Assembly (NCBI GenBank): GCA_014728035.1
Contig: WJMJ01000022.1
Span: 32,001 to 96,000, forward strand
DNA: 64,000 bases
From: Promethearchaeota archaeon
GTDB lineage: Archaea > Asgardarchaeota > Thorarchaeia > Thorarchaeales > Thorarchaeaceae
Reading direction: 5' to 3'
The notes beneath the pieces are model-generated. The model ran no database searches, was not told the origin of the DNA, and was given only the letters and a program-made list of their open reading frames with translations. This document shows, piece by piece, positions 6,367 to 55,832 of the stretch (the stretch's first letter is position 1; each line of letters opens with the position of its first letter). The position numbers and the translations under genes are program-made.

Positions 6367-7254
6367 TCAATATAAGGTTCTAAGTTTTCGTTCAATTTGG
6401 TACCGTGAAATTAGACTACCTGCACCAAAAGATTCCATACTCGCAGAGCCGCAGACTGCTCCAAAATGACCTGCTGCTGATATATTTCCGCCAGTCCTTA
6501 GAAACTCAAGAAGAAAGCCTATCATGTACATGTGAATATACCCACGATCGTCACGAAACCGTGATGGTATGATATATGGAATGTCCTCTTTTCCGTGATG
6601 TGTATATATCGATGACCCCAACTCATCCTTCATTAATATCACAATAAATGGTCCTTTTCTAAGAACATCATCAATGGCTTCCTGTTCTGTTACTCTCTCA
6701 GTTATTAGAGAGAGTTCAAGCTGATCTAAGACGAGTACATTAATGTAGCCAAGGTAAAAATCAAGGTCTGGACATGATACAATCTGTATCTCATTGTCTT
6801 CCTCTTGATACAGAATTCCCTTGAGGTCCAGAGCTAGAATTGCTTCTGTTGCGGCAGCTTTGGTAAAGCAGGATTTTGAAATTTCACGATAGATTGGGGA
6901 GAAGTAGATAATTGTAGAATCAAGATGATGTGGAAGCAAGAACTCCTTGGTTATCTTTGGCGCCAGACTCTGTAACGATCTGATTTTCTTTCCTTCTTCA
7001 CCCATAGTAGTAACAATAGTTGTGGTTTTGGGGCCCATTTGATACAGTCCAGAAGTATCAACACCGGATTGAGTAAGTCTCCTATAGGCCGGTTCGGGAA
7101 AATCCGATCCAATGCAAGATACTATTGAAGTGCCATTTGCCTCAAGTGTTGGTCCAGATAGTGCATAAATAGGGGCGCCTCCCAAAGTTTCTTTTATCCC
7201 CTGTTTTGTAACGCGAATATCTCTGAAGAGATGACCGACTACCGTTAATTCCAT
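6367..7254 (-). CDS. PfkB/ribokinase-family protein with degenerate catalytic motif
   Basis: MELTVVGH..D; LGGAPIY; SCIGSDF; GVDTSG; start ATG 7254 with SD GGGAGG. The longer track ORF overlaps rpl34e. Confidence 0.85.
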   Translation of the reverse strand: MELTVVGHLFRDIRVTKQGIKETLGGAPIYALSGPTLEANGTSIVSCIGSDFPEPAYRRLTQSGVDTSGLYQMGPKTTTIVTTMGEEGKKIRSLQSLAPKITKEFLLPHHLDSTIIYFSPIYREISKSCFTKAAATEAILALDLKGILYQEEDNEIQIVSCPDLDFYLGYINVLVLDQLELSLITERVTEQEAIDDVLRKGPFIVILMKDELGSSIYTHHGKEDIPYIIPSRFRDDRGYIHMYMIGFLLEFLRTGGNISAAGHFGAVCGSASMESFGAGSLISRYQIERKLRTLY

Positions 7255-8635: not shown

Positions 8636-9643
8636 ATGATGTCAAATTCTCTACCAGCTGACCAACCCCGTGAAACCATAACCAGGGCTGTAGATACAAC
8701 AAATCCTGATTATGGTTTCTCATCTTTTGATGATTTACCTATAGAATTCTTGCTAGAAAACTCTGTAATCGCATTGGATAAACCTGCAGGTCCGACAAGT
8801 CACGAGGTAGCTACTTGGGTCAGACGAATCTTTGACTCTGAGCGGGTTGGACACGGAGGTACACTTGATCCAGGAGTTACTGGAATTTTACCCCTTGGCA
8901 TGAATAATGCAACAAAGGCAATGCAGGCATTACTTCCAGCTGGAAAAGAATACGTATGTATAATGGAGCTTCATCGTAAAGCATTAGAAGAGGATATCCG
9001 TGAAATCGTTAAGGAATTTACTGGAAAGTTATACCAGAAACCTCCCTTACGATCTGCGGTTCGTAGAATCTTACGAGTACGTGAAGTCTATTATAACGAC
9101 ATAGTCGAAATCAAAGGGCGTTTGGTTCTTTTCAGAGTTGGCTGTCAGGCAGGAACCTATATTCGAAAGTTGTGTTTTGATATTGGCGAAGCTTTGGGAG
9201 TTGGAGCTCATATGCGTGAGCTCAGACGAACCCGTGTTGGAAATTTCAGAGAAGACGAGCATATGTGTTCTCTTTACGATTTGAAGGATGCTTATCATTT
9301 CTGGCTTGAAGACGAAGATGATCAAGAGCTGAGAAAATATTTGATGCCTATGGAGTTTGCAATTGGACACCTTCCAGAAATTGTGGTTCGTGATACGGCT
9401 GTTGCAGCTATCTGTCATGGTGCACCTCTTGCTGCAAATGGAGTGCTGCATCTGAGTTCTGGTATCAAGAAAGATGATCTAGTAGCATTAAAAACACTCA
9501 AAGGTGAAGCGATAGCTATTGGTATCAGTAAAAACATATCCGACAGAATAGCAAAAGCCAACTCTGGGATTGTTGCCGATATACAGAGGGTTCTGATGGA
9601 ACGAGACCGTTATCCTCAGCTTTGGAAATCACGTTCGGATTAG
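8636..9643 (+). CDS. cbf5: H/ACA RNA-guided pseudouridine synthase Cbf5
   Basis: DKPAGPTSHEV; GHGGTLDP; GTYIRKLC; MRELRRTR; C-terminal PUA domain. Confidence 0.97.
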   Translation: MMSNSLPADQPRETITRAVDTTNPDYGFSSFDDLPIEFLLENSVIALDKPAGPTSHEVATWVRRIFDSERVGHGGTLDPGVTGILPLGMNNATKAMQALLPAGKEYVCIMELHRKALEEDIREIVKEFTGKLYQKPPLRSAVRRILRVREVYYNDIVEIKGRLVLFRVGCQAGTYIRKLCFDIGEALGVGAHMRELRRTRVGNFREDEHMCSLYDLKDAYHFWLEDEDDQELRKYLMPMEFAIGHLPEIVVRDTAVAAICHGAPLAANGVLHLSSGIKKDDLVALKTLKGEAIAIGISKNISDRIAKANSGIVADIQRVLMERDRYPQLWKSRSD

Positions 9644-43003: not shown

Positions 43004-43960
43004 CTATGCGAATCTGCCTTCTGAAGGATCCATAGTAATCTGTAGGTTCTTCACAAGCTCTTTGTATCTATTACGTACAGTCACCTCAGTCACATTGCTT
43101 GCTTGAGCAATCTCACGTTGTGTACGTCGATCATCTTCTATGATTCCTGCAATGTATAGAGCTGCTGCTGCAATACCACCTGGGTCCTTGCCTACAGTGA
43201 TTCCTTTCTGTCTAGCATCTTCGATAATGTCTGTTGCTCGTTTAATGGTGCGTCCTTGGACTCCTAAGTCTGCAGATATTCTTGGAATGAGGTTCTTCGC
43301 TGATGGAAGAGGTACTTTCATGTCAAGATATCTGATAAGAAGGCGAACAGCTTGACCGAGTTTCTTTCTGTCAATTCTACTCTCGTCAGCAAGTTCGTCA
43401 AGTCGACGTGGAATCTTGTGAATTCTACATGCTAAGTATACCGCTGCTGCTACGACACTTTCAATACTTCTGCCACGGGCTAGTTTCTTGCTTAGTGCCT
43501 TTCTGTAGATAAGTGCAGAGCGTTCACGAGTTTCATGAGGTATTCCTAGCTGTGAACTTAATCTTTTCAACTCATTAAGGGCGATTCTTAGATTCCTTTG
43601 GTCCGAACTATGAGCTTGTGTTCTGATCTGCCATTTTCTCATTCGGTAAATGGACGCTCTAGTGCTTGCCTTGATTGGCCTTCCACTTGCGTCTCGATTA
43701 CTCCAGCTTATTGTAGTAGAGAGTCCTTTGTCTGCAACCATTACACTCATTGGCGCTCCTGTTCTTTCACGGGATTCTCTCTCTTCAGCTGTGAAAGCTC
43801 TCCACTCAGGGCCAGTATCAATTGTGCCTTCACCAGCTACACATCCGCATGATGTGCAGATTGTTTCGCCGCGTTTTCTATCTTCATAGAATTCTTCTGC
43901 GCCGCAAAGCGTGCATACAGTTTCTCTGTTGTCTTTGACTTTTTTGCCATCTATACCCAT
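43004..43960 (-). CDS. tfb: Transcription initiation factor IIB paralogue 2
   Basis: CTLCG..CTSCG; GPEWRAF; two cyclin repeats; TEVTVRNRY; start ATG 43960 or 43999. Confidence 0.95.
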   Translation of the reverse strand: MGIDGKKVKDNRETVCTLCGAEEFYEDRKRGETICTSCGCVAGEGTIDTGPEWRAFTAEERESRERTGAPMSVMVADKGLSTTISWSNRDASGRPIKASTRASIYRMRKWQIRTQAHSSDQRNLRIALNELKRLSSQLGIPHETRERSALIYRKALSKKLARGRSIESVVAAAVYLACRIHKIPRRLDELADESRIDRKKLGQAVRLLIRYLDMKVPLPSAKNLIPRISADLGVQGRTIKRATDIIEDARQKGITVGKDPGGIAAAALYIAGIIEDDRRTQREIAQASNVTEVTVRNRYKELVKNLQITMDPSEGRFA

Positions 43961-44210
43961 TTTAACGACCTTCAAACGAAGGATCTTCTGTCTCTCCATC
44001 TCGGATAATATTAAGTTTGATTATCATTTCTCATAATTCTATGATATGGAGGGACATATGATTCCGAGTTGCATGCACAAATTGTATTTTACACTTATAA
44101 AAGGTCGGAATTGAGTGTCAAATTACTGAATATTTTGCAATCTTGCTTATACTTGCTGTAAATTATTCATGCGCAGCTAATACTATCTCCATTATGAATA
44201 CTGAAACTGA

Positions 44211-44240
44211 TAAAGGGAGTGTTTACAATTGCTCCCTTTA
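44211..44240 (-). terminator. Hairpin after TFB paralogue 3
   Basis: TAAAGGGAGT-10nt-GCTCCCTTTA. Confidence 0.5.
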
Positions 44241-44261
44241 CCAAGATTTGTAAAAAACGCT

Positions 44262-45206
44262 TTATGGTCTAATTGTGATTTGCAAATTGGTCGCGAGGTC
44301 TTTGTATCTGTTTCGAACAGTTACCTCAGTTACATTGCTTGCTTCTGCTATCTCACGCTGTGTTCGTCGGTCGTCTTCAATGATGCCAGCAATGTATAAT
44401 GCTGCAGCAGCAAGACCACCTGGATCTTTCCCAGCTGTGATTCCTTTCTCTCTAGCTTCATTGATTATATTCATAGCAGTCTGAACAGTCTTGCCATCAA
44501 GCTCCAAGTCTGCTGAAATCCGTGGCATTAGATCGTTCGCTGATGGAATAGGAACTTTCACATCAACATATCGAAGTATGAGTCTCACACATTGCCCTAA
44601 TTCCTTTCTATTAACTCTGGCTTCTGTTACAATTTCGTCAAGTTGACGAGGGATCTTATGAATCCGGCATGAAAGGTATATTGAAGCTGATACCATACCT
44701 TCAATGCTTCTTCCTCGTACAAGTCTTTTTGTTAGTGCTTTTCTGTAGATGAGTGCAGCAGTTTCTTTTGTTTCACGAGGAACTCCTAACTGAGAAGTGA
44801 GTCTATCCATCTCACTCATGGCAATACTGAGGTTGCGATGTTGTGAGCTATGTACTAAGGTTCTAATTTGCCATTTTCTCATTCGATAGATTTCAGCACG
44901 TTTTGTAGCTGCTATTGCTCTACCATTAGCATCACGGTCGCTCCAACTAATGGTTGTTGCAAGACCTTTATCTGCCATAGTGAGGGTCATTGGCGAACCA
45001 GTTCTGGCTCGTGCATCTCTCTCTTCAGCGGTGAAGGCACGCCACTCAGGCCCTGAATCCATTATACGTTCATTAACAACACATCCACATGATGTGCAGA
45101 TATTCTCTCCTCTTGTTATGTCTTCATAGAATTCTGTTCCTCCACAAATAGAGCAAACAGCTGATGGTTTTCGCCTATCACCCAATGACCTGACTGGTTT
45201 TGCCAA
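44262..45206 (-). CDS. tfb: Transcription initiation factor IIB paralogue 3
   Basis: CSICG..CTSCG; GPEWRAF; GRSIE; TEVTVRNRY; SD AGGTGA with TTG start. Confidence 0.96.
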   Translation of the reverse strand: MAKPVRSLGDRRKPSAVCSICGGTEFYEDITRGENICTSCGCVVNERIMDSGPEWRAFTAEERDARARTGSPMTLTMADKGLATTISWSDRDANGRAIAATKRAEIYRMRKWQIRTLVHSSQHRNLSIAMSEMDRLTSQLGVPRETKETAALIYRKALTKRLVRGRSIEGMVSASIYLSCRIHKIPRQLDEIVTEARVNRKELGQCVRLILRYVDVKVPIPSANDLMPRISADLELDGKTVQTAMNIINEAREKGITAGKDPGGLAAAALYIAGIIEDDRRTQREIAEASNVTEVTVRNRYKDLATNLQITIRP

Positions 45207-46017: not shown

Positions 46018-46041
46018 TATAATTAACTATGGTTAATTATA
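46018..46041. promoter_or_regulatory. Inverted repeat, candidate operator
   Basis: TATAATTAAC-TATG-GTTAATTATA in a divergent intergenic region. Confidence 0.45.
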
Positions 46042-46182: not shown

Positions 46183-46881
46183 ATGGCTTTCGGGTTACTT
46201 CATATTCTCTTCTTAATTTCAGGAGTGCTTATAGTAGGATGTATTCTTTTTCTTTCTAGACGCTATATGGCTCAGAAAAATACCTTGACATTGGTATTCA
46301 CGCTATTTCTGATATCTTATGCCATTATTGGGTTTGCATACGGATTGAGAGGATTTTTTGATCCTCAAACTGCACCAGAGATTCTCCTCTGGGTTCTGAC
46401 GAACTTAATGTATCCCATTATGGTTGTACCTTTAGCAGTATTCCTCGCCTACCCTTATCTTCAAGAACAAATTGGAACTCTTACTGGTTTCATAACTCGC
46501 TTAGTTATGATATTTGCTTTTGTAGTAGTTGTCTTCAATTGGGGTGTCATTTTTACATCAGATATTGAATTCACCTATATCGATCTCTTTGAGCTTACTC
46601 ATTATGCTCTTGTTTCAGATTTTATTCCCTATGCATATTATTTGACTCTCCTTCTGGATATAGTCGTAGCGACTTTCTCAGCTATATTTTTGGCAATATC
46701 CTTCAAGAGGGAAACAGACTCTGTGTACAAACAAAAGGCACTATTCCTCTTGCTCGGTTGGCTGTTAGTATCTTATGGGCAATTGCTTCTACTAAGTCCA
46801 ACTCTCGCAATCATTCATCCTCTTACCTCTATGAGCGGTGTTATTCTCCTTGTGCTCGGAGTTATCCGTAGCAGTTCATAG
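46183..46881 (+). CDS. Stand-alone seven-transmembrane protein
   Basis: Seven hydrophobic segments of about 20-25 aa in 232 aa; no soluble output domain. Confidence 0.75.
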   Translation: MAFGLLHILFLISGVLIVGCILFLSRRYMAQKNTLTLVFTLFLISYAIIGFAYGLRGFFDPQTAPEILLWVLTNLMYPIMVVPLAVFLAYPYLQEQIGTLTGFITRLVMIFAFVVVVFNWGVIFTSDIEFTYIDLFELTHYALVSDFIPYAYYLTLLLDIVVATFSAIFLAISFKRETDSVYKQKALFLLLGWLLVSYGQLLLLSPTLAIIHPLTSMSGVILLVLGVIRSSS

Positions 46882-46924
46882 ACGTTAGGATTACACCTAT
46901 ATGAATTGTCTAATGTGATGACAT

Positions 46925-47422
46925 ATGACAGGAAAGGTGGTCAAGATGGCATTGGTAGGTGCTGGTGGAGCTGGTAAAACTACCATTGCCTCTCGCCTTA
47001 TCACAGGTGAGTTCATCGAAACTCTGATGACCATTGGGATAAACATCGAGACCTGGAAACTAGAAGATGATGCTAGCGATTCGGATGTCACGGTGGCTCT
47101 TTTCGATCTTGGAGGTCAGAATCAATTCAGATTCTTTCAAAAGAGTCTTCTCAGTGGTACTCATGCAGTTATTCTTGTCGTTGACATGACCCGTCTACCA
47201 ACACTTTTCGAACTTGATGACTGGATCAAACTTATCCAACATGTTGACAAAGAAATGTGGCTACTTGTTGGGAATAAATGTGATGATCATATCATGATGA
47301 CGGAGGATGATATCCGTAAGAAAGCAGAAGAAATAGGAATCCCCTATGTCATTCTCAGTGCTAAAACTGGCGAAGGGTTTGATGAATTGGTTGAGCGTAT
47401 TATTGATATGATGCGAAATTAG
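46925..47422 (+). CDS. Ras-superfamily (Rab/Arf-like) small GTPase
   Basis: G1 GAGGAGKTT, G2 TIG, G3 DLGGQ, G4 NKCD, G5 SAK. Confidence 0.93.
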   Translation: MTGKVVKMALVGAGGAGKTTIASRLITGEFIETLMTIGINIETWKLEDDASDSDVTVALFDLGGQNQFRFFQKSLLSGTHAVILVVDMTRLPTLFELDDWIKLIQHVDKEMWLLVGNKCDDHIMMTEDDIRKKAEEIGIPYVILSAKTGEGFDELVERIIDMMRN

Positions 47423-47499
47423 TGCAACTCTCTCTCAATCAACCTTTTATTGTCATGCGCAAAACTATAATCATTCAATTAGTTTGCAGAGGTATTTGT

Positions 47500-48345
47500 G
47501 TGTCAAGTTCTGATGAGAAGGAAATATACGTTTTTTGTGAACAATGCAAGCAGAATGTACTCCTACGTGTCCCTCTAACCTCTGATGCTGCTACAAGGGG
47601 CGGCTTAATGTCTGTTGTTTCTGTTCATGGTAACCCTCCTCATGCACTCATGGCATATCTTGATGCAGAATTTCGTGTGAGAGGGATAGAGTATCCAGCA
47701 GCAGCTCAGACTGCGGACGCTGGGCGGATAGAGTCAGTTCCTGAAAGCAAAACGGAGGCACTTGAAGAAAAAGTCGAACTAGGATTATTAGCATTGCTTG
47801 ATATTTTTCATCCAAAAAGAAAGGATGCAATAAAAGCACTAGCAATAATTATGGTCAATATGCTTACCAAGAAGCGAATTTTTCTGATTCATGATGAAAA
47901 AGCAATTGGAACTTCTGTTATTTCGGCACTTCATGATATTGCGTCATTTGAAGAGGATCTGATTACACTCATTAATCATACAATTCTCTCAAAGAGTGAA
48001 CTGAATCCATTTTGTGTCTATGACCTTCAGCAAAATAAACTCCTTCACCAAGGTCCAAAAATCGACTCGAAATATTTTGAGCGCATTCTTCAAGATATCG
48101 CAAAGCACGAAAACCCCTACTTTAGACTTAAGAATGAAATGAGTAAAATCGTATATGCCTATGGTCGATTACAGGAAATTCTTTCAGCTCTGGATTCGTC
48201 TATTCTAGACACTCAGCTCGCTTGTGATGCGTCAATCGATTATGAATTACTTCCATTCCTTCTCGAAATGGCTGAATCTGAAGGGCATAATATCCGGTCA
48301 CTTGTGAAAAAGGACGGTCTCGGAAGGGCTCTTCGCAGTATTTAG
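47500..48345 (+). CDS. GTPase-associated protein: N-terminal CxxC/H/H domain plus possible DENN-like core
   Basis: CEQC..HGNPPH..LDAEFRVRG; NMLTKKRIFLIH..SAL..VYDLQQNK; GTG start at 47500 after SD GAGGT. Confidence 0.7.
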   Translation: MSSSDEKEIYVFCEQCKQNVLLRVPLTSDAATRGGLMSVVSVHGNPPHALMAYLDAEFRVRGIEYPAAAQTADAGRIESVPESKTEALEEKVELGLLALLDIFHPKRKDAIKALAIIMVNMLTKKRIFLIHDEKAIGTSVISALHDIASFEEDLITLINHTILSKSELNPFCVYDLQQNKLLHQGPKIDSKYFERILQDIAKHENPYFRLKNEMSKIVYAYGRLQEILSALDSSILDTQLACDASIDYELLPFLLEMAESEGHNIRSLVKKDGLGRALRSI

Positions 48346-48414
48346 CGAACTATACGAGTATATTTAACAATGGTTAACTTTAATAGTGGTGTTTCCAAGT
48401 GAATACTGATTGTA

Positions 48415-48990
48415 ATGATTGAGTATGTTGTGATTGTCTTAGCTGTGTTTCTGTTTGGAATGCAGCATAGTGGTATGTCTGCACTTAAGGTTAAGAATCG
48501 AATTATAGATCGATGGGGGAAGAAGGGCTATTCGCGTGTCTATACTATCACAGCAAGTATCACTCTACTCATTGCATTTCTCTCTATGCAATTTTGGGAC
48601 TGGTTATATTTTCTATTCCAATCATTCAATATTCTTTCATTTGCAGTTGGTATTCTACTGATAATAATTGGGCTGGTGATAACAACTGCAGCTACTAGAG
48701 TCATTTCAGTCAGTACTGTAGCAGATATGCGAACCGACCGGAAACCAGAACTAGTGACTGATGGTATTTATGCTCAAGTACGTCATCCCCTCTACCTTGC
48801 TACAATTATTCTTCTTATTGGACTTATTTTCCTCTATCTTCCCTTTCTGAGAGTCATTGTATTTTCTTTATCTCTGATTGCTTACACTCTAATTGGTGCA
48901 TATCTTGAAGAGAGAAAACTAATTTGTCACTATGGCCAGGATTATTTGGATTATAGAGAACAAGTTGGATTCATCCTTCCAAAGCTATGA
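48415..48990 (+). CDS. ICMT/NnrU-like membrane methyltransferase family protein
   Basis: FG.QHS; LVTDGIYAQVRHPLY; EERKL..YG.DY..Y..V..IL.P. Confidence 0.85.
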   Translation: MIEYVVIVLAVFLFGMQHSGMSALKVKNRIIDRWGKKGYSRVYTITASITLLIAFLSMQFWDWLYFLFQSFNILSFAVGILLIIIGLVITTAATRVISVSTVADMRTDRKPELVTDGIYAQVRHPLYLATIILLIGLIFLYLPFLRVIVFSLSLIAYTLIGAYLEERKLICHYGQDYLDYREQVGFILPKL

Positions 48991-52930: not shown

Positions 52931-53974
52931 TTAGTTGCCTTTTGTTACTTTGAATACTGATATTGGTGTGGCTGTTTCGAATCTTGCTGCTCCTGCTTCT
53001 TTTACCCATTCTTCCATGGTGTCTTTGTAAAAGAACCCATAAGCTCCCTCTACGACTTTGAAATGGGCTTCACCATACTTGTTTGCGTCTGGGTAGAAAT
53101 TCTGAGTGCCAAATAGGAAACCGCCAGGTTTTAGCACACGAAGCATCTCTGTGATGGCACTTTTTGGATCTGTCCAGTGTAGCACTTGGGATGCATAGAC
53201 AATATCAAAGGTCTCATCATCGAAGGGGATGTTTTCAGCATATCCTGGATGAAACTCCACCGGGAATTCGTTTACTTTGTCTTTGATACTCATGTCATGT
53301 CCGTTGTGCTCGGAGACCATCTGGGCAAACTCCTCTTGTGCTATCCGAAGAAGATTCTCATCTGGATCGATTGCTACTATCTGCATTGGGGACCCATTTT
53401 GGAATAGATCGTTTTCATAGTAGTAAGACCAGATTGCGGCTGTTCCCCGGCCGTTTCCAGAGCCTACATCTAGAAATCTTATAGGCTCTTTCAGCGCGTC
53501 TGCAAAAGCAAAAGCTGCGCGGCGAATTTGTTCATAGAGCTTGTTTGACAGTGCGTCGTCCCAGTTGAATAGATTGAGACCTCCTGTAAATTCAATGTAC
53601 TTCCCTCTAAGTCTGTCAGGTATAGCTCTTGCGTGGTCAACCCAAAGTTCTTGCATGGCATCATCAAAACAGCTTGGGCATTGCCAGGCAAATTGAATCT
53701 CTTCGTCGATGAAAAGGTGGTCATCATCTTGTTCGATCACGCCATCCTCTAGCAAGATTGATAGAAGATATTCTAGGAATTCAATATCTGTATATTTGTA
53801 CTCCGATGCAATCTCCATGATAGTTTTAGGTTCTCTCAGTAAGTCGAACCAACCTTCATTTCTTAAAACTCCCAGAATATTTCCTCGAAAGAAGATGTCT
53901 ATTTCTGTTCTGAGTTTTGACACATTCAAACCAAGTTTCATTAGTTCTTTCCAAGCTTTCAATTTTCTAATCAT
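52931..53974 (-). CDS. Class I SAM-dependent methyltransferase (UbiE-like C-terminus)
   Basis: FLDVGSGNG; AENIPFDDETFD; LHW.DP..EMLRVLKPGG. Confidence 0.9.
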   Translation of the reverse strand: MIRKLKAWKELMKLGLNVSKLRTEIDIFFRGNILGVLRNEGWFDLLREPKTIMEIASEYKYTDIEFLEYLLSILLEDGVIEQDDDHLFIDEEIQFAWQCPSCFDDAMQELWVDHARAIPDRLRGKYIEFTGGLNLFNWDDALSNKLYEQIRRAAFAFADALKEPIRFLDVGSGNGRGTAAIWSYYYENDLFQNGSPMQIVAIDPDENLLRIAQEEFAQMVSEHNGHDMSIKDKVNEFPVEFHPGYAENIPFDDETFDIVYASQVLHWTDPKSAITEMLRVLKPGGFLFGTQNFYPDANKYGEAHFKVVEGAYGFFYKDTMEEWVKEAGAARFETATPISVFKVTKGN

Positions 53975-53988
53975 AATTTCACCTCCTT

Positions 53989-54903
53989 TTATCTTAGTAG
54001 CCCTCGCCTATCCACATAATCTAGCATATCGAAAATTTGTGAAATCTTACCTATTTGCCCCTGTTCGAGGAGATTGATTACACTTGCAGTTCCACTTAAC
54101 AGTGGCATAAGAATTTCTTTTGCAAAGGGATATTTGCGTTCAACTCGCTCCACAATAGATGGTATTCGAGGTATGAATCCAAATTCAATTTTTGAGTATA
54201 GTCGATCATCGGAAGCCAACCTGATTAGTATCTCTGGATTTATCTTTGGATATTCTGATATTACATGCAATCCTAGAATGAGTAAACGTTTGTCAGGTAT
54301 TGCATCCCGATGTGTGTTTTTTGTCAGCTCTTTAAGAAGAATTTTGATAGATGTTATAGCTGCCGCTCCCTTAGCGGTCACGCAGGCAACTCTTGAATTA
54401 TTAATCCAGATTCGCAAGTCTTGATCTGCAATTGTAAAACTCATCTCCTCTGGTAGAGTTTCATATACGCGTTCTGCCTCCTCTACTTTTTTATCGAGTA
54501 ACCTAGCAAGTTCTAACAATCGCACTTTCTCGCTTCCTAGCCCTTCCATGACCCACGAGTCAATTCTGTCCATAATGAATACATTCTCAAGGTAGGGGTG
54601 CGTATGTAGTGCATCAGGTTTTTGAGATACTAGCCAGAGTCTTTTTTCTTCTTCGAGCTTATCAATCTGTTCGACAAAAGCATCTTTGTGACCACGGAAT
54701 AGATGTTTATGGTCCACAACTACAGTGTTAACATGACGTTCATTTCCAATCTCGTGAGCAACTCGATACGTTGTGAGTTGCATACCAAAGAATTTCTCAT
54801 GTGTTGTCTTTGACTCGAATGTTGTTGGGTTTTCAGGATCAAATTTGATAGGCTCATTACATACAGCACATTGAAACTGTGTTATCTGTTGAATTTGACT
54901 CAC
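53989..54903 (-). CDS. GTPase-associated protein: CxxC/H/H domain, longin/roadblock-like middle, wHTH end
   Basis: CAVC..HEIGNERH..VDHKHLFRG; GTG start at 54903 overlaps the GTPase stop, SD GGAGG. Confidence 0.7.
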   Translation of the reverse strand: MSQIQQITQFQCAVCNEPIKFDPENPTTFESKTTHEKFFGMQLTTYRVAHEIGNERHVNTVVVDHKHLFRGHKDAFVEQIDKLEEEKRLWLVSQKPDALHTHPYLENVFIMDRIDSWVMEGLGSEKVRLLELARLLDKKVEEAERVYETLPEEMSFTIADQDLRIWINNSRVACVTAKGAAAITSIKILLKELTKNTHRDAIPDKRLLILGLHVISEYPKINPEILIRLASDDRLYSKIEFGFIPRIPSIVERVERKYPFAKEILMPLLSGTASVINLLEQGQIGKISQIFDMLDYVDRRGLLR

Positions 54904-55553
54904 TATGCTACCTCCTTTTTGAAGAGATGGTCCACCAGCCAACGTTTTATACCATTCATTCCTTGTCCTGTCATACAGCTAATCTCAAAATATTCAACTA
55001 TCTGGGGATTGCCATGGAGAATCGCTTCAATCAACCCTTTGTCCATGGTGCAGTTCAAATCACACTTGTTTCTGACTAGGATAAAGTCGGGAGTTGGGCT
55101 TTTTGTCTGTGATATATAATAGCCAGTCAGCAAGTCCATCCATTCAGTCAAATCAATTAATGATTGAATATTGTCACTTGCAAAAACAAGGATGACTACA
55201 TCCACACCTCCGAGAGCAGTTCGACTAATATCTTTGAGTGCATGAATAGGGGAGTCGAGCTGTCCAGAAATATCGACCATTTGACATACTCCAGTAATGT
55301 CTTCCTCTACTAGATCGGAAGCTGCTATTGCAGATAGGTCGATGAAATGTGTTCGGTGATATTCTGCTTCTCCCTCAAGCAATTCTCCAAGGCTCTTTTT
55401 CTCTCTCAGAACCGTTAGTAAGCTGGTTTTTCCAACGGCCCCAGACCCTGCCATCAGAATCTTTCTGATTCCTTTTCGCAGTTTTATTTCTTCTATCATA
55501 CTCCGGGATGTTTCAGGCTCGTGTTCTTTGGCAGTCAATTTACTCGCACTCAT
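54903..55553 (-). CDS. Divergent Ras-superfamily small GTPase
   Basis: G1 GSGAVGKTS, G3 DISGQ, G4 NKCD, G5 SC; start ATG 55553 or TTG 55568. Confidence 0.88.
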   Translation of the reverse strand: MSASKLTAKEHEPETSRSMIEEIKLRKGIRKILMAGSGAVGKTSLLTVLREKKSLGELLEGEAEYHRTHFIDLSAIAASDLVEEDITGVCQMVDISGQLDSPIHALKDISRTALGGVDVVILVFASDNIQSLIDLTEWMDLLTGYYISQTKSPTPDFILVRNKCDLNCTMDKGLIEAILHGNPQIVEYFEISCMTGQGMNGIKRWLVDHLFKKEVA

Positions 55554-55832
55554 TTTTATCACAGGCAAATATACTCCATTATGATATAATAGTAAAATTT
55601 AGATATAAATCTTTACTATTCTACCACTTTCTATTTTTTGCAAAACTGTGCTTTTTTCTAATAGTTAGAAAAAATTGACCATAGAAATATTAGACAAAAA
55701 GAGTCGTTTTTGTATGAGTGAACTAAGGATGTATTGTGTTCTTAGTAGAGATATTTGATTGCGCATGCGAGTACTTTATAGCAGACTTCTTTTTCGGTTC
55801 CATAGTCAATACCACCAATCGAGGTCAATACA

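Follow-up and report, generated by a model that had tools for sequence, protein, structure and literature searches.

DENND1 is a guanine nucleotide exchange factor (GEF), FLCN and SMCR8 are GTPase-activating proteins (GAPs) that act through an arginine in their N-terminal module, and the transporter PQLC2 has seven helices. The DENN complex C9orf72-SMCR8-WDR41 is recruited by PQLC2 at the lysosome (PMC7039192), and Liu, Makarova et al. described an Asgard archaeal operon in which a Roadblock protein resembling LAMTOR1 is encoded together with a Rab-like GTPase and a DENN protein (bioRxiv 10.1101/2020.10.19.343400; later Nature 2021). Asgard archaea possess many small GTPases and eukaryote-like regulator folds, the pairing of these regulators with GTPases and their location in the cell being largely unknown, and according to one experimental study gene order rarely helps with this pairing (PMC10933270). 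Here we describe a locus in a 64-kb window (the whole stretch of 64,000 nucleotides that was analysed, from contig WJMJ01000022.1 of a member of the Thorarchaeaceae) where genes for a seven-transmembrane (7TM) protein, a small GTPase that is Rab-like and a predicted DENN-fold protein follow one another. The conserved core of this arrangement is the 7TM-DENN pair, which is accompanied by the GTPase gene in approximately half of the cases, and on balance we lean towards reading the locus as an operon that encodes a small-GTPase regulator tethered to the membrane.

The plus strand of the window carries four open reading frames (ORFs) in this region: the 7TM protein gene (46183-46881, 232 aa), the Rab-like GTPase gene (46925-47422, 165 aa), the DENN protein gene (47500-48345, GTG start, 281 aa) and an ICMT/PEMT-like gene that is discussed below. 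The gaps separating the first three genes measure 43 bp (7TM/GTPase) and 77 bp (GTPase/DENN). An earlier note, made from the letters of the sequence, had described these as three co-oriented and closely spaced genes; all of them are present on the plus strand, and only the beginning of the third had to be moved. This ORF had been read as 47422-48345 (307 aa), but all homologues and the database gene call start with MSSSDEKE..., which corresponds to the GTG at 47500, and a GAGGT motif is located 6 nt upstream of this codon.

The 281-aa protein is predicted to have a DENN fold. Pfam and NCBIfam searches with the 281-aa and 307-aa versions gave no DENN domain, and no Pfam family at E≤0.1 except for a chance-level zinc-ribbon match; a scan of the genome with the PF02141 profile returned nothing at E≤1, and the family profile of the protein recovered no DENN protein at E≤10 among the PDB sequences. 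Because these sequence searches came up empty, the assignment draws on predicted structure, namely on two AlphaFold2 models, the first built from 4 sequences and the second from 56 rows. The N-terminus, unresolved in the first model, is resolved in the second, which has a predicted local distance difference test (pLDDT) score of 89 and a predicted template modelling (pTM) score of 0.80. The top Foldseek match of the model was DENND1B with Rab35 (E 4.9e-4, prob 1.00), and in a further structure comparison of the second model the top 11 entries were all DENN-family proteins, with unrelated ATPases coming next, at 5.9. The DENN-fold region (residues ~88-267; 47761..48300, plus strand) displays an alpha/beta core that is cDENN-like, followed by a helical part that is dDENN-like and locally winged-helix-like, so that both parts are present in the predicted structure; the DENN-like pattern that the earlier note had seen in the middle of the protein is thus borne out. 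This region is preceded by an acidic, Ala-rich linker of low confidence (residues ~66-87; 47695..47760, plus strand; pLDDT 55-60), which is poorly conserved. A different identity, having nothing to do with GTPase regulation, would be that of a nucleic-acid-binding regulator made up of a zinc ribbon and a winged helix, which the membrane protein would retain or release; we regard this as very improbable.

The full-length DENN relatives are restricted in their distribution. They were found in 43 of the 85 genomes of the same family, while in the rest of the phylum the matches of the DENN profile span only the N-terminal domain, except for a few that reach the alpha/beta core (e.g. L036). A word-indexed homologue search with the DENN protein yielded 3 relatives, and an exhaustive search of a representative library of 1.84 billion proteins yielded 54, of which 16 at E≤1e-30; the full-length family is therefore small, and is essentially confined to one Thorarchaeota family.

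The protein terminates in a tail, ...KKDGLGRALRSI, which together with the stop codon occupies 48301..48345 on the plus strand and is proposed as an element that docks on the 7TM protein. An adjacent 7TM gene was present at 16 of the 16 DENN loci having the DGLGRAxRSI tail and at 0 of the 22 loci lacking it, a rule without exception, counted on related genomes that do not represent independent samples. The 16 tail-bearing loci belong to 8 genera, with protein identities going down to ~26-35%; the 22 tail-less loci form a separate DENN clade, which adjoins msrA. It is from this co-occurrence, and not from the complex model described below (whose interface was not reported), that we infer the docking of the tail on the 7TM protein.

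Gene order gives a similar picture. The 7TM-GTPase-DENN or the 7TM-DENN order occurs in 8 of the 16 genera of the family. The complete 7TM-GTPase-DENN order is found in the window and at L002/3/8, L005, L010, L011 and L013, the order GTPase-7TM-DENN at L014, and the 7TM-DENN order with no GTPase gene at L016-L019 and L027. An intermediate state is seen at L001 (5533-5706; also G344:C125), where a 57-aa ORF (MMVSAKTGENFDRL...) lying between the 7TM and DENN genes corresponds to the G5 end of the GTPase, so that the GTPase gene at this locus appears to have been largely deleted. About half of the loci lack the GTPase, which makes the full trio non-obligatory: of the receptor, GTPase and DENN module that the earlier note had put forward for a neighbourhood check, the 7TM and DENN genes proved to be conserved together, and the full trio in only about half of the loci. 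The genome that the window comes from also contains a second pair, composed of a 7TM gene (221 aa) and a DENN gene (275 aa) with no GTPase gene (G000:C130:130955-132450; L027:5950-7451, minus strand).

Binding of the two core proteins was addressed by a complex prediction for one pair, made up of the DENN protein and the 7TM protein; an alignment was supplied for each of the two, and three controls were included. The interface score ipSAE was 0.56 (0.56, 0.57 and 0.41 in the individual runs) compared to 0.00 for all three controls, on a scale where 58 of the 80 solved complexes in the benchmark, as well as 2 of its 110 mismatched pairs, reach the mark, and where values ≤0.60 were obtained for only 7 of the 80 solved complexes and for both of the passing mismatches. 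The runs shared at least 81% of their contacts, and the pLDDT of the partner, the 7TM protein, was 83-86. The model weakly suggests that the DENN protein binds the 7TM protein, and we count its score as mildly positive because the gene linkage provides a prior. The weakness of this score, and the occurrence of some 7TM paralogues and of one DENN clade on their own, would fit with the genes being co-transcribed neighbours that are not physically coupled, the 7TM protein then being a transporter or an enzyme unrelated to the GTPase system. We consider this quite unlikely, given the 16/16 versus 0/22 distribution of the tail, the duplication of the 7TM-DENN pair as a unit in one genome, and the lack of any transporter or enzyme family match for the 7TM protein.

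The hydropathy profile of the 7TM protein contains seven peaks, and, when averaged over 15 homologues, the predicted inner loops of the family have a mean K+R count of 10.1 versus 1.2 for the outer loops. Based on the family-averaged profile and on this charge count, the protein is predicted to have seven helices in an N-out/C-in topology. Its chain ends 4 residues past helix 7 and no kinase or output domain is fused to it, so that the hydropathy and the charge count agree with its earlier description as seven hydrophobic helices with no such domain. Two conserved motifs belong to inner loops: RRYxxQRNxLTL follows helix 1, and RETDxFYKxRALLLLxGW precedes helix 6. Searches of the window's own protein against Pfam and NCBIfam gave no match, and in the Pfam scans neither the protein nor its homologues matched GPCR (G-protein-coupled receptor), transporter or enzyme families. 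PF16927 (HisKA_7TM) was matched by 4 of the 15 family members, over the full length but weakly (best E 7.8e-7). The sole PF16927-like place in this genome is the 7TM paralogue that neighbours the second DENN gene (E 0.029, 15.2 bits versus a cut-off of 28.6, covering positions 4-216 of 224). On account of these homologues and of the in-genome paralogue, the window protein may be viewed as a stand-alone, distant relative of the HisKA_7TM sensor-type region, in line with the guess that had been made for it. Both have seven helices; PF16927 is the N-terminal input region of histidine kinases, whereas the window protein stands alone, with no histidine kinase or other output domain fused to it. Longer, fused versions of the 7TM protein were looked for without success, which is weak evidence. 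Solo paralogues with no DENN or GTPase gene nearby occur at L049-L052, and at two other places (G335:C51:8282-9120 and G325:C8:3326-3937) the DENN-adjacent 7TM gene matches in two pieces, which could reflect a frameshift, damage to the gene or a mistake in the assembly.

How much the 7TM protein does is a matter of two competing views. It could serve only to anchor the DENN protein and the GTPase passively at the membrane, sensing nothing, comparable to lipidated LAMTOR1/Ragulator for the Rags. Its loops are all short (the longest has 21 residues and is acidic), it has no recognisable ligand-binding domain, and the corresponding position in the published Asgard operon is taken by a Roadblock-type scaffold protein. 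On the other hand, a single helix or a lipid would suffice for anchoring, and seven conserved helices, conserved intramembrane and loop motifs and the relationship to histidine kinase input regions exceed what an anchor needs; we rate the passive anchor as rather unlikely. In the more ambitious view, likewise held with little confidence, the 7TM protein would be a true receptor sensing a ligand or state, which recruits or releases the DENN regulator via the tail to control the Rab-like GTPase, with the zinc domain of the regulator being a new GTPase-docking (possibly Arg-finger) module. If true, this would be an archaeal receptor-to-regulator-to-small-GTPase pathway prefiguring the eukaryotic transceptor/DENN systems (PQLC2 with C9orf72-SMCR8; the FLCN lysosomal complex).

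The GTPase matches Pfam Ras with an E-value of 2.5e-24 (86.1 bits, cut-off 21.6), with Roc and Arf also exceeding their cut-offs, and TIGR00231 with 62 bits. All its motifs are intact (G1 GAGGAGKT, G2 T36, G3 DLGGQ, G4 NKCD and G5 SAK), including the catalytic Gln65 in DLGGQ, and its best matches among the PDB sequences are Sec4, Rab18, Rab1 and Rab35 (5e-18 to 1e-14), as well as a crystallised Thorarchaeota Rab. By these motifs and matches it is a complete Rab-like small GTPase of the Ras superfamily, as had been read from its G1-G5 motifs, then under the label Rab/Arf-like. The chain terminates with ...ELVERIIDMMRN (IIDMMRN) and possesses neither a CaaX/CC tail, whose CaaX form had already been reported missing, nor an N-terminal amphipathic helix. 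C-terminal cysteine prenylation motifs (CC, CxC, CaaX) were absent from this GTPase and from all of the related GTPases (0 of 15); no lipid anchor is therefore evident, and for this reason it is proposed that the GTPase is switched at the membrane.

The 7TM-then-GTPase gene order in several genera, together with an N-out/C-in topology as found in GPCRs, invites a strictly GPCR-like scheme, in which the 7TM protein itself would be the exchange factor acting on the GTPase, with the DENN protein working further down the pathway as an effector or GAP. We give this scheme very little credence: the GTPase is a small Ras/Rab-like protein and not a G-alpha (PF00503 gave 16.2 bits where the cut-off is 48.8), it is 7TM plus DENN, and not 7TM plus GTPase, that stays together in every case, and the 7TM protein matches no GPCR family. 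A 7TM receptor of the GPCR family coupled to a G-alpha is thus not what the locus encodes; the topology is GPCR-like, but the families are not matched.

At its N-terminus, the DENN protein has a domain (residues 1-65; 47500..47694, plus strand) that is predicted to consist of five beta-strands (AlphaFold2 pLDDT 75-92), and alignments show near-invariant C13, C16, H43 and H48, the probable zinc ligands of a C2H2 site, along with near-invariant G44, P46, D55 and R61. In the model the domain is not a longin, since it has five strands and zero helices and a longin needs three helices, although it may be a remote derivative of the longin sheet. Of the 400 Asgard genomes that were sampled, 187 gave matches to the whole-protein family profile A2, mostly via this domain. 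Proteins having it occur Asgard-wide, measure ~90-360 aa and carry varied C-terminal parts, V4R domains included; the fusion to a V4R (TRAPP/Bet3-like) domain is seen for instance in P0036 and P0040. In a sample of 19 Asgard loci (within L029-L048), the gene with this domain lies directly 3' of a co-directional small GTPase gene in 8 loci of different Asgard families, and the adjacent GTPases carry the signature G-x-G-G-[VA]-G-K-[ST] plus D-[FL]-G-G-[QE], like the window GTPase. We propose that the domain may be a GTPase-docking module. As it is found in about half of the 400 Asgard genomes, and often beside GTPase genes, it may be a general, undescribed GTPase partner. The GAP longins have been characterised by a 'GP motif plus arginine finger' (PMC12290439), and it is tempting to speculate that HGxPxH and Arg61 are the counterpart of these two elements by analogy, the strand positions showing no obvious correspondence.

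The window holds a second cassette on the minus strand (52931-55568), comprised of a small GTPase (54903-55568), a protein of 53989-54942 that shares the N-terminal CxxC...H...H...D...RG domain with the DENN protein, and a class I S-adenosylmethionine (SAM) methyltransferase (52931-53974). A methyltransferase gene thereby follows both GTPase cassettes of the window, the two enzymes being from different families. A different Asgard family has, at L040 (G275:C103:1778-7101), a tandem of two 290-aa proteins with the N-terminal domain, which are followed on the same strand by one 11-helix and two 7-helix membrane proteins, none of which has a detectable relationship to the 7TM family of the window.

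Taken as a membrane-tethered GTPase regulator, the operon could function as follows. The 281-aa protein would be a two-module regulator: its C2H2 zinc beta-domain, with Arg61, would dock onto a Rab-like GTPase that has the G-x-G-G-x-G-K-[ST] motif, and its DENN-fold body would serve as the regulatory or scaffold part. The DGLGRAxRSI tail would attach this regulator to the cytoplasmic face of the 7TM protein, which would localise it to the membrane and probably gate it, and the complex would set the nucleotide state of the GTPase at the membrane. For those operons that contain no GTPase gene, the client GTPase would be encoded elsewhere. As to the direction of regulation, a GEF is the role we would tentatively name first for the DENN protein, though we do not hold it to be probable; a GAP working through Arg61, and an effector or scaffold, are each possible to a lesser and equal degree. 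Several observations weigh against a membrane-tethered regulator. Roughly half of the 7TM-DENN loci have no GTPase gene, and at one the gene is decayed; 7TM paralogues and a DENN clade exist on their own; the window's own 7TM protein remains below every Pfam threshold; and the canonical longin (uDENN) lobe of DENN modules is lacking in the 281-aa protein.

The fourth ORF (48415-48990, plus strand, 191 aa) encodes a membrane methyltransferase of the ICMT/PEMT/NnrU family, having both Pfam (PEMT 5.7e-11, ICMT 4.4e-6) and NCBIfam matches. An ICMT-family gene does follow the trio, as the earlier note stated, but it turned out to be a genus-level neighbour and not a part of the conserved unit, being adjacent only in the window and at L002/L003/L008, all from the same genus. 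No CaaX substrate exists among the cassette proteins (the last four residues are MMRN in the GTPase, LRSI in the DENN protein and RSSS in the 7TM protein), and on these two grounds the gene was rejected as a member of the unit.

Two copies of a palindrome (TTAAC-N4-GTTAA) flank the cassette. The first, TTAACTATGGTTAA (14 bp; 46023..46036), is located 147 bp upstream of the 7TM gene and is a candidate operator or promoter element; the second, TTAACAATGGTTAA (48364..48377), lies between the DENN and ICMT-like genes. These are the two occurrences in the 64-kb window, where 0.16 would be expected, and in the same-genus relative L003 both positions are likewise occupied (6500-6513 and 8859-8872), which suggests a shared regulator. 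Further upstream, two tandem TFB (TFIIB-like) paralogues (43004-45206, minus strand) are positioned just 5' of the cassette region, an arrangement kept in the same-genus relative (L002/L003), and a KTI12/PSTK-like gene is also among the neighbours in the window.

The unit represents a testable candidate for membrane-coupled small-GTPase control in the Thorarchaeota, close relatives of eukaryotes. It names three concrete native partners and one specific, mutable contact, the C-terminal tail, and the variation among loci in whether they have the GTPase or the tail constitutes a natural experiment. It is also a prokaryotic case in which a DENN-fold protein is connected with a polytopic membrane protein.

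Compared with the Asgard operon of Liu et al., the locus shows the same adjacency of a DENN-fold protein, proposed as a GTPase regulator, to a Rab-like (not Rag) GTPase. The Roadblock gene of that operon is replaced here by a gene for a seven-helix membrane protein, and no Roadblock or longin Pfam match was obtained among the window neighbours (the 7TM protein, the ICMT-like protein and an unknown protein of 191 aa encoded on the opposite strand). In addition, the DENN protein of the window has a C2H2 zinc beta-domain and a C-terminal tail, and its family is missed by the Pfam DENN models. The adjacency of Asgard DENN and Rab-like genes was already known; the 7TM partner and the zinc domain are what is new, as set apart by the published description of that operon. 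No literature linking an Asgard small GTPase to a seven-transmembrane protein was found. The eukaryotic DENN Rab GEFs DENND1A/B, structurally characterised with Rab35 (PDB 6ekk, 3tw8), share ~10-12% identity with the DENN protein of the window and differ from it by their longin (uDENN) lobe, a GEF role being only hypothetical for the archaeal protein. The Longin-DENN GAP complexes (FLCN-FNIP on Rag-Ragulator; C9orf72-SMCR8-WDR41 with PQLC2) are tethered to membrane transceptors, and in this respect the likeness is one of functional analogy only: the N-terminal module of the window protein is a helix-less zinc domain and not a longin, it carries HGxPxH instead of GP, and the 7TM protein is HisKA_7TM-like and not a PQ-loop protein as PQLC2. 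Through this likeness to the recruitment of eukaryotic DENN proteins to lysosomal transceptors, the locus bears on the pre-eukaryotic origin of membrane-coupled GTPase signalling.

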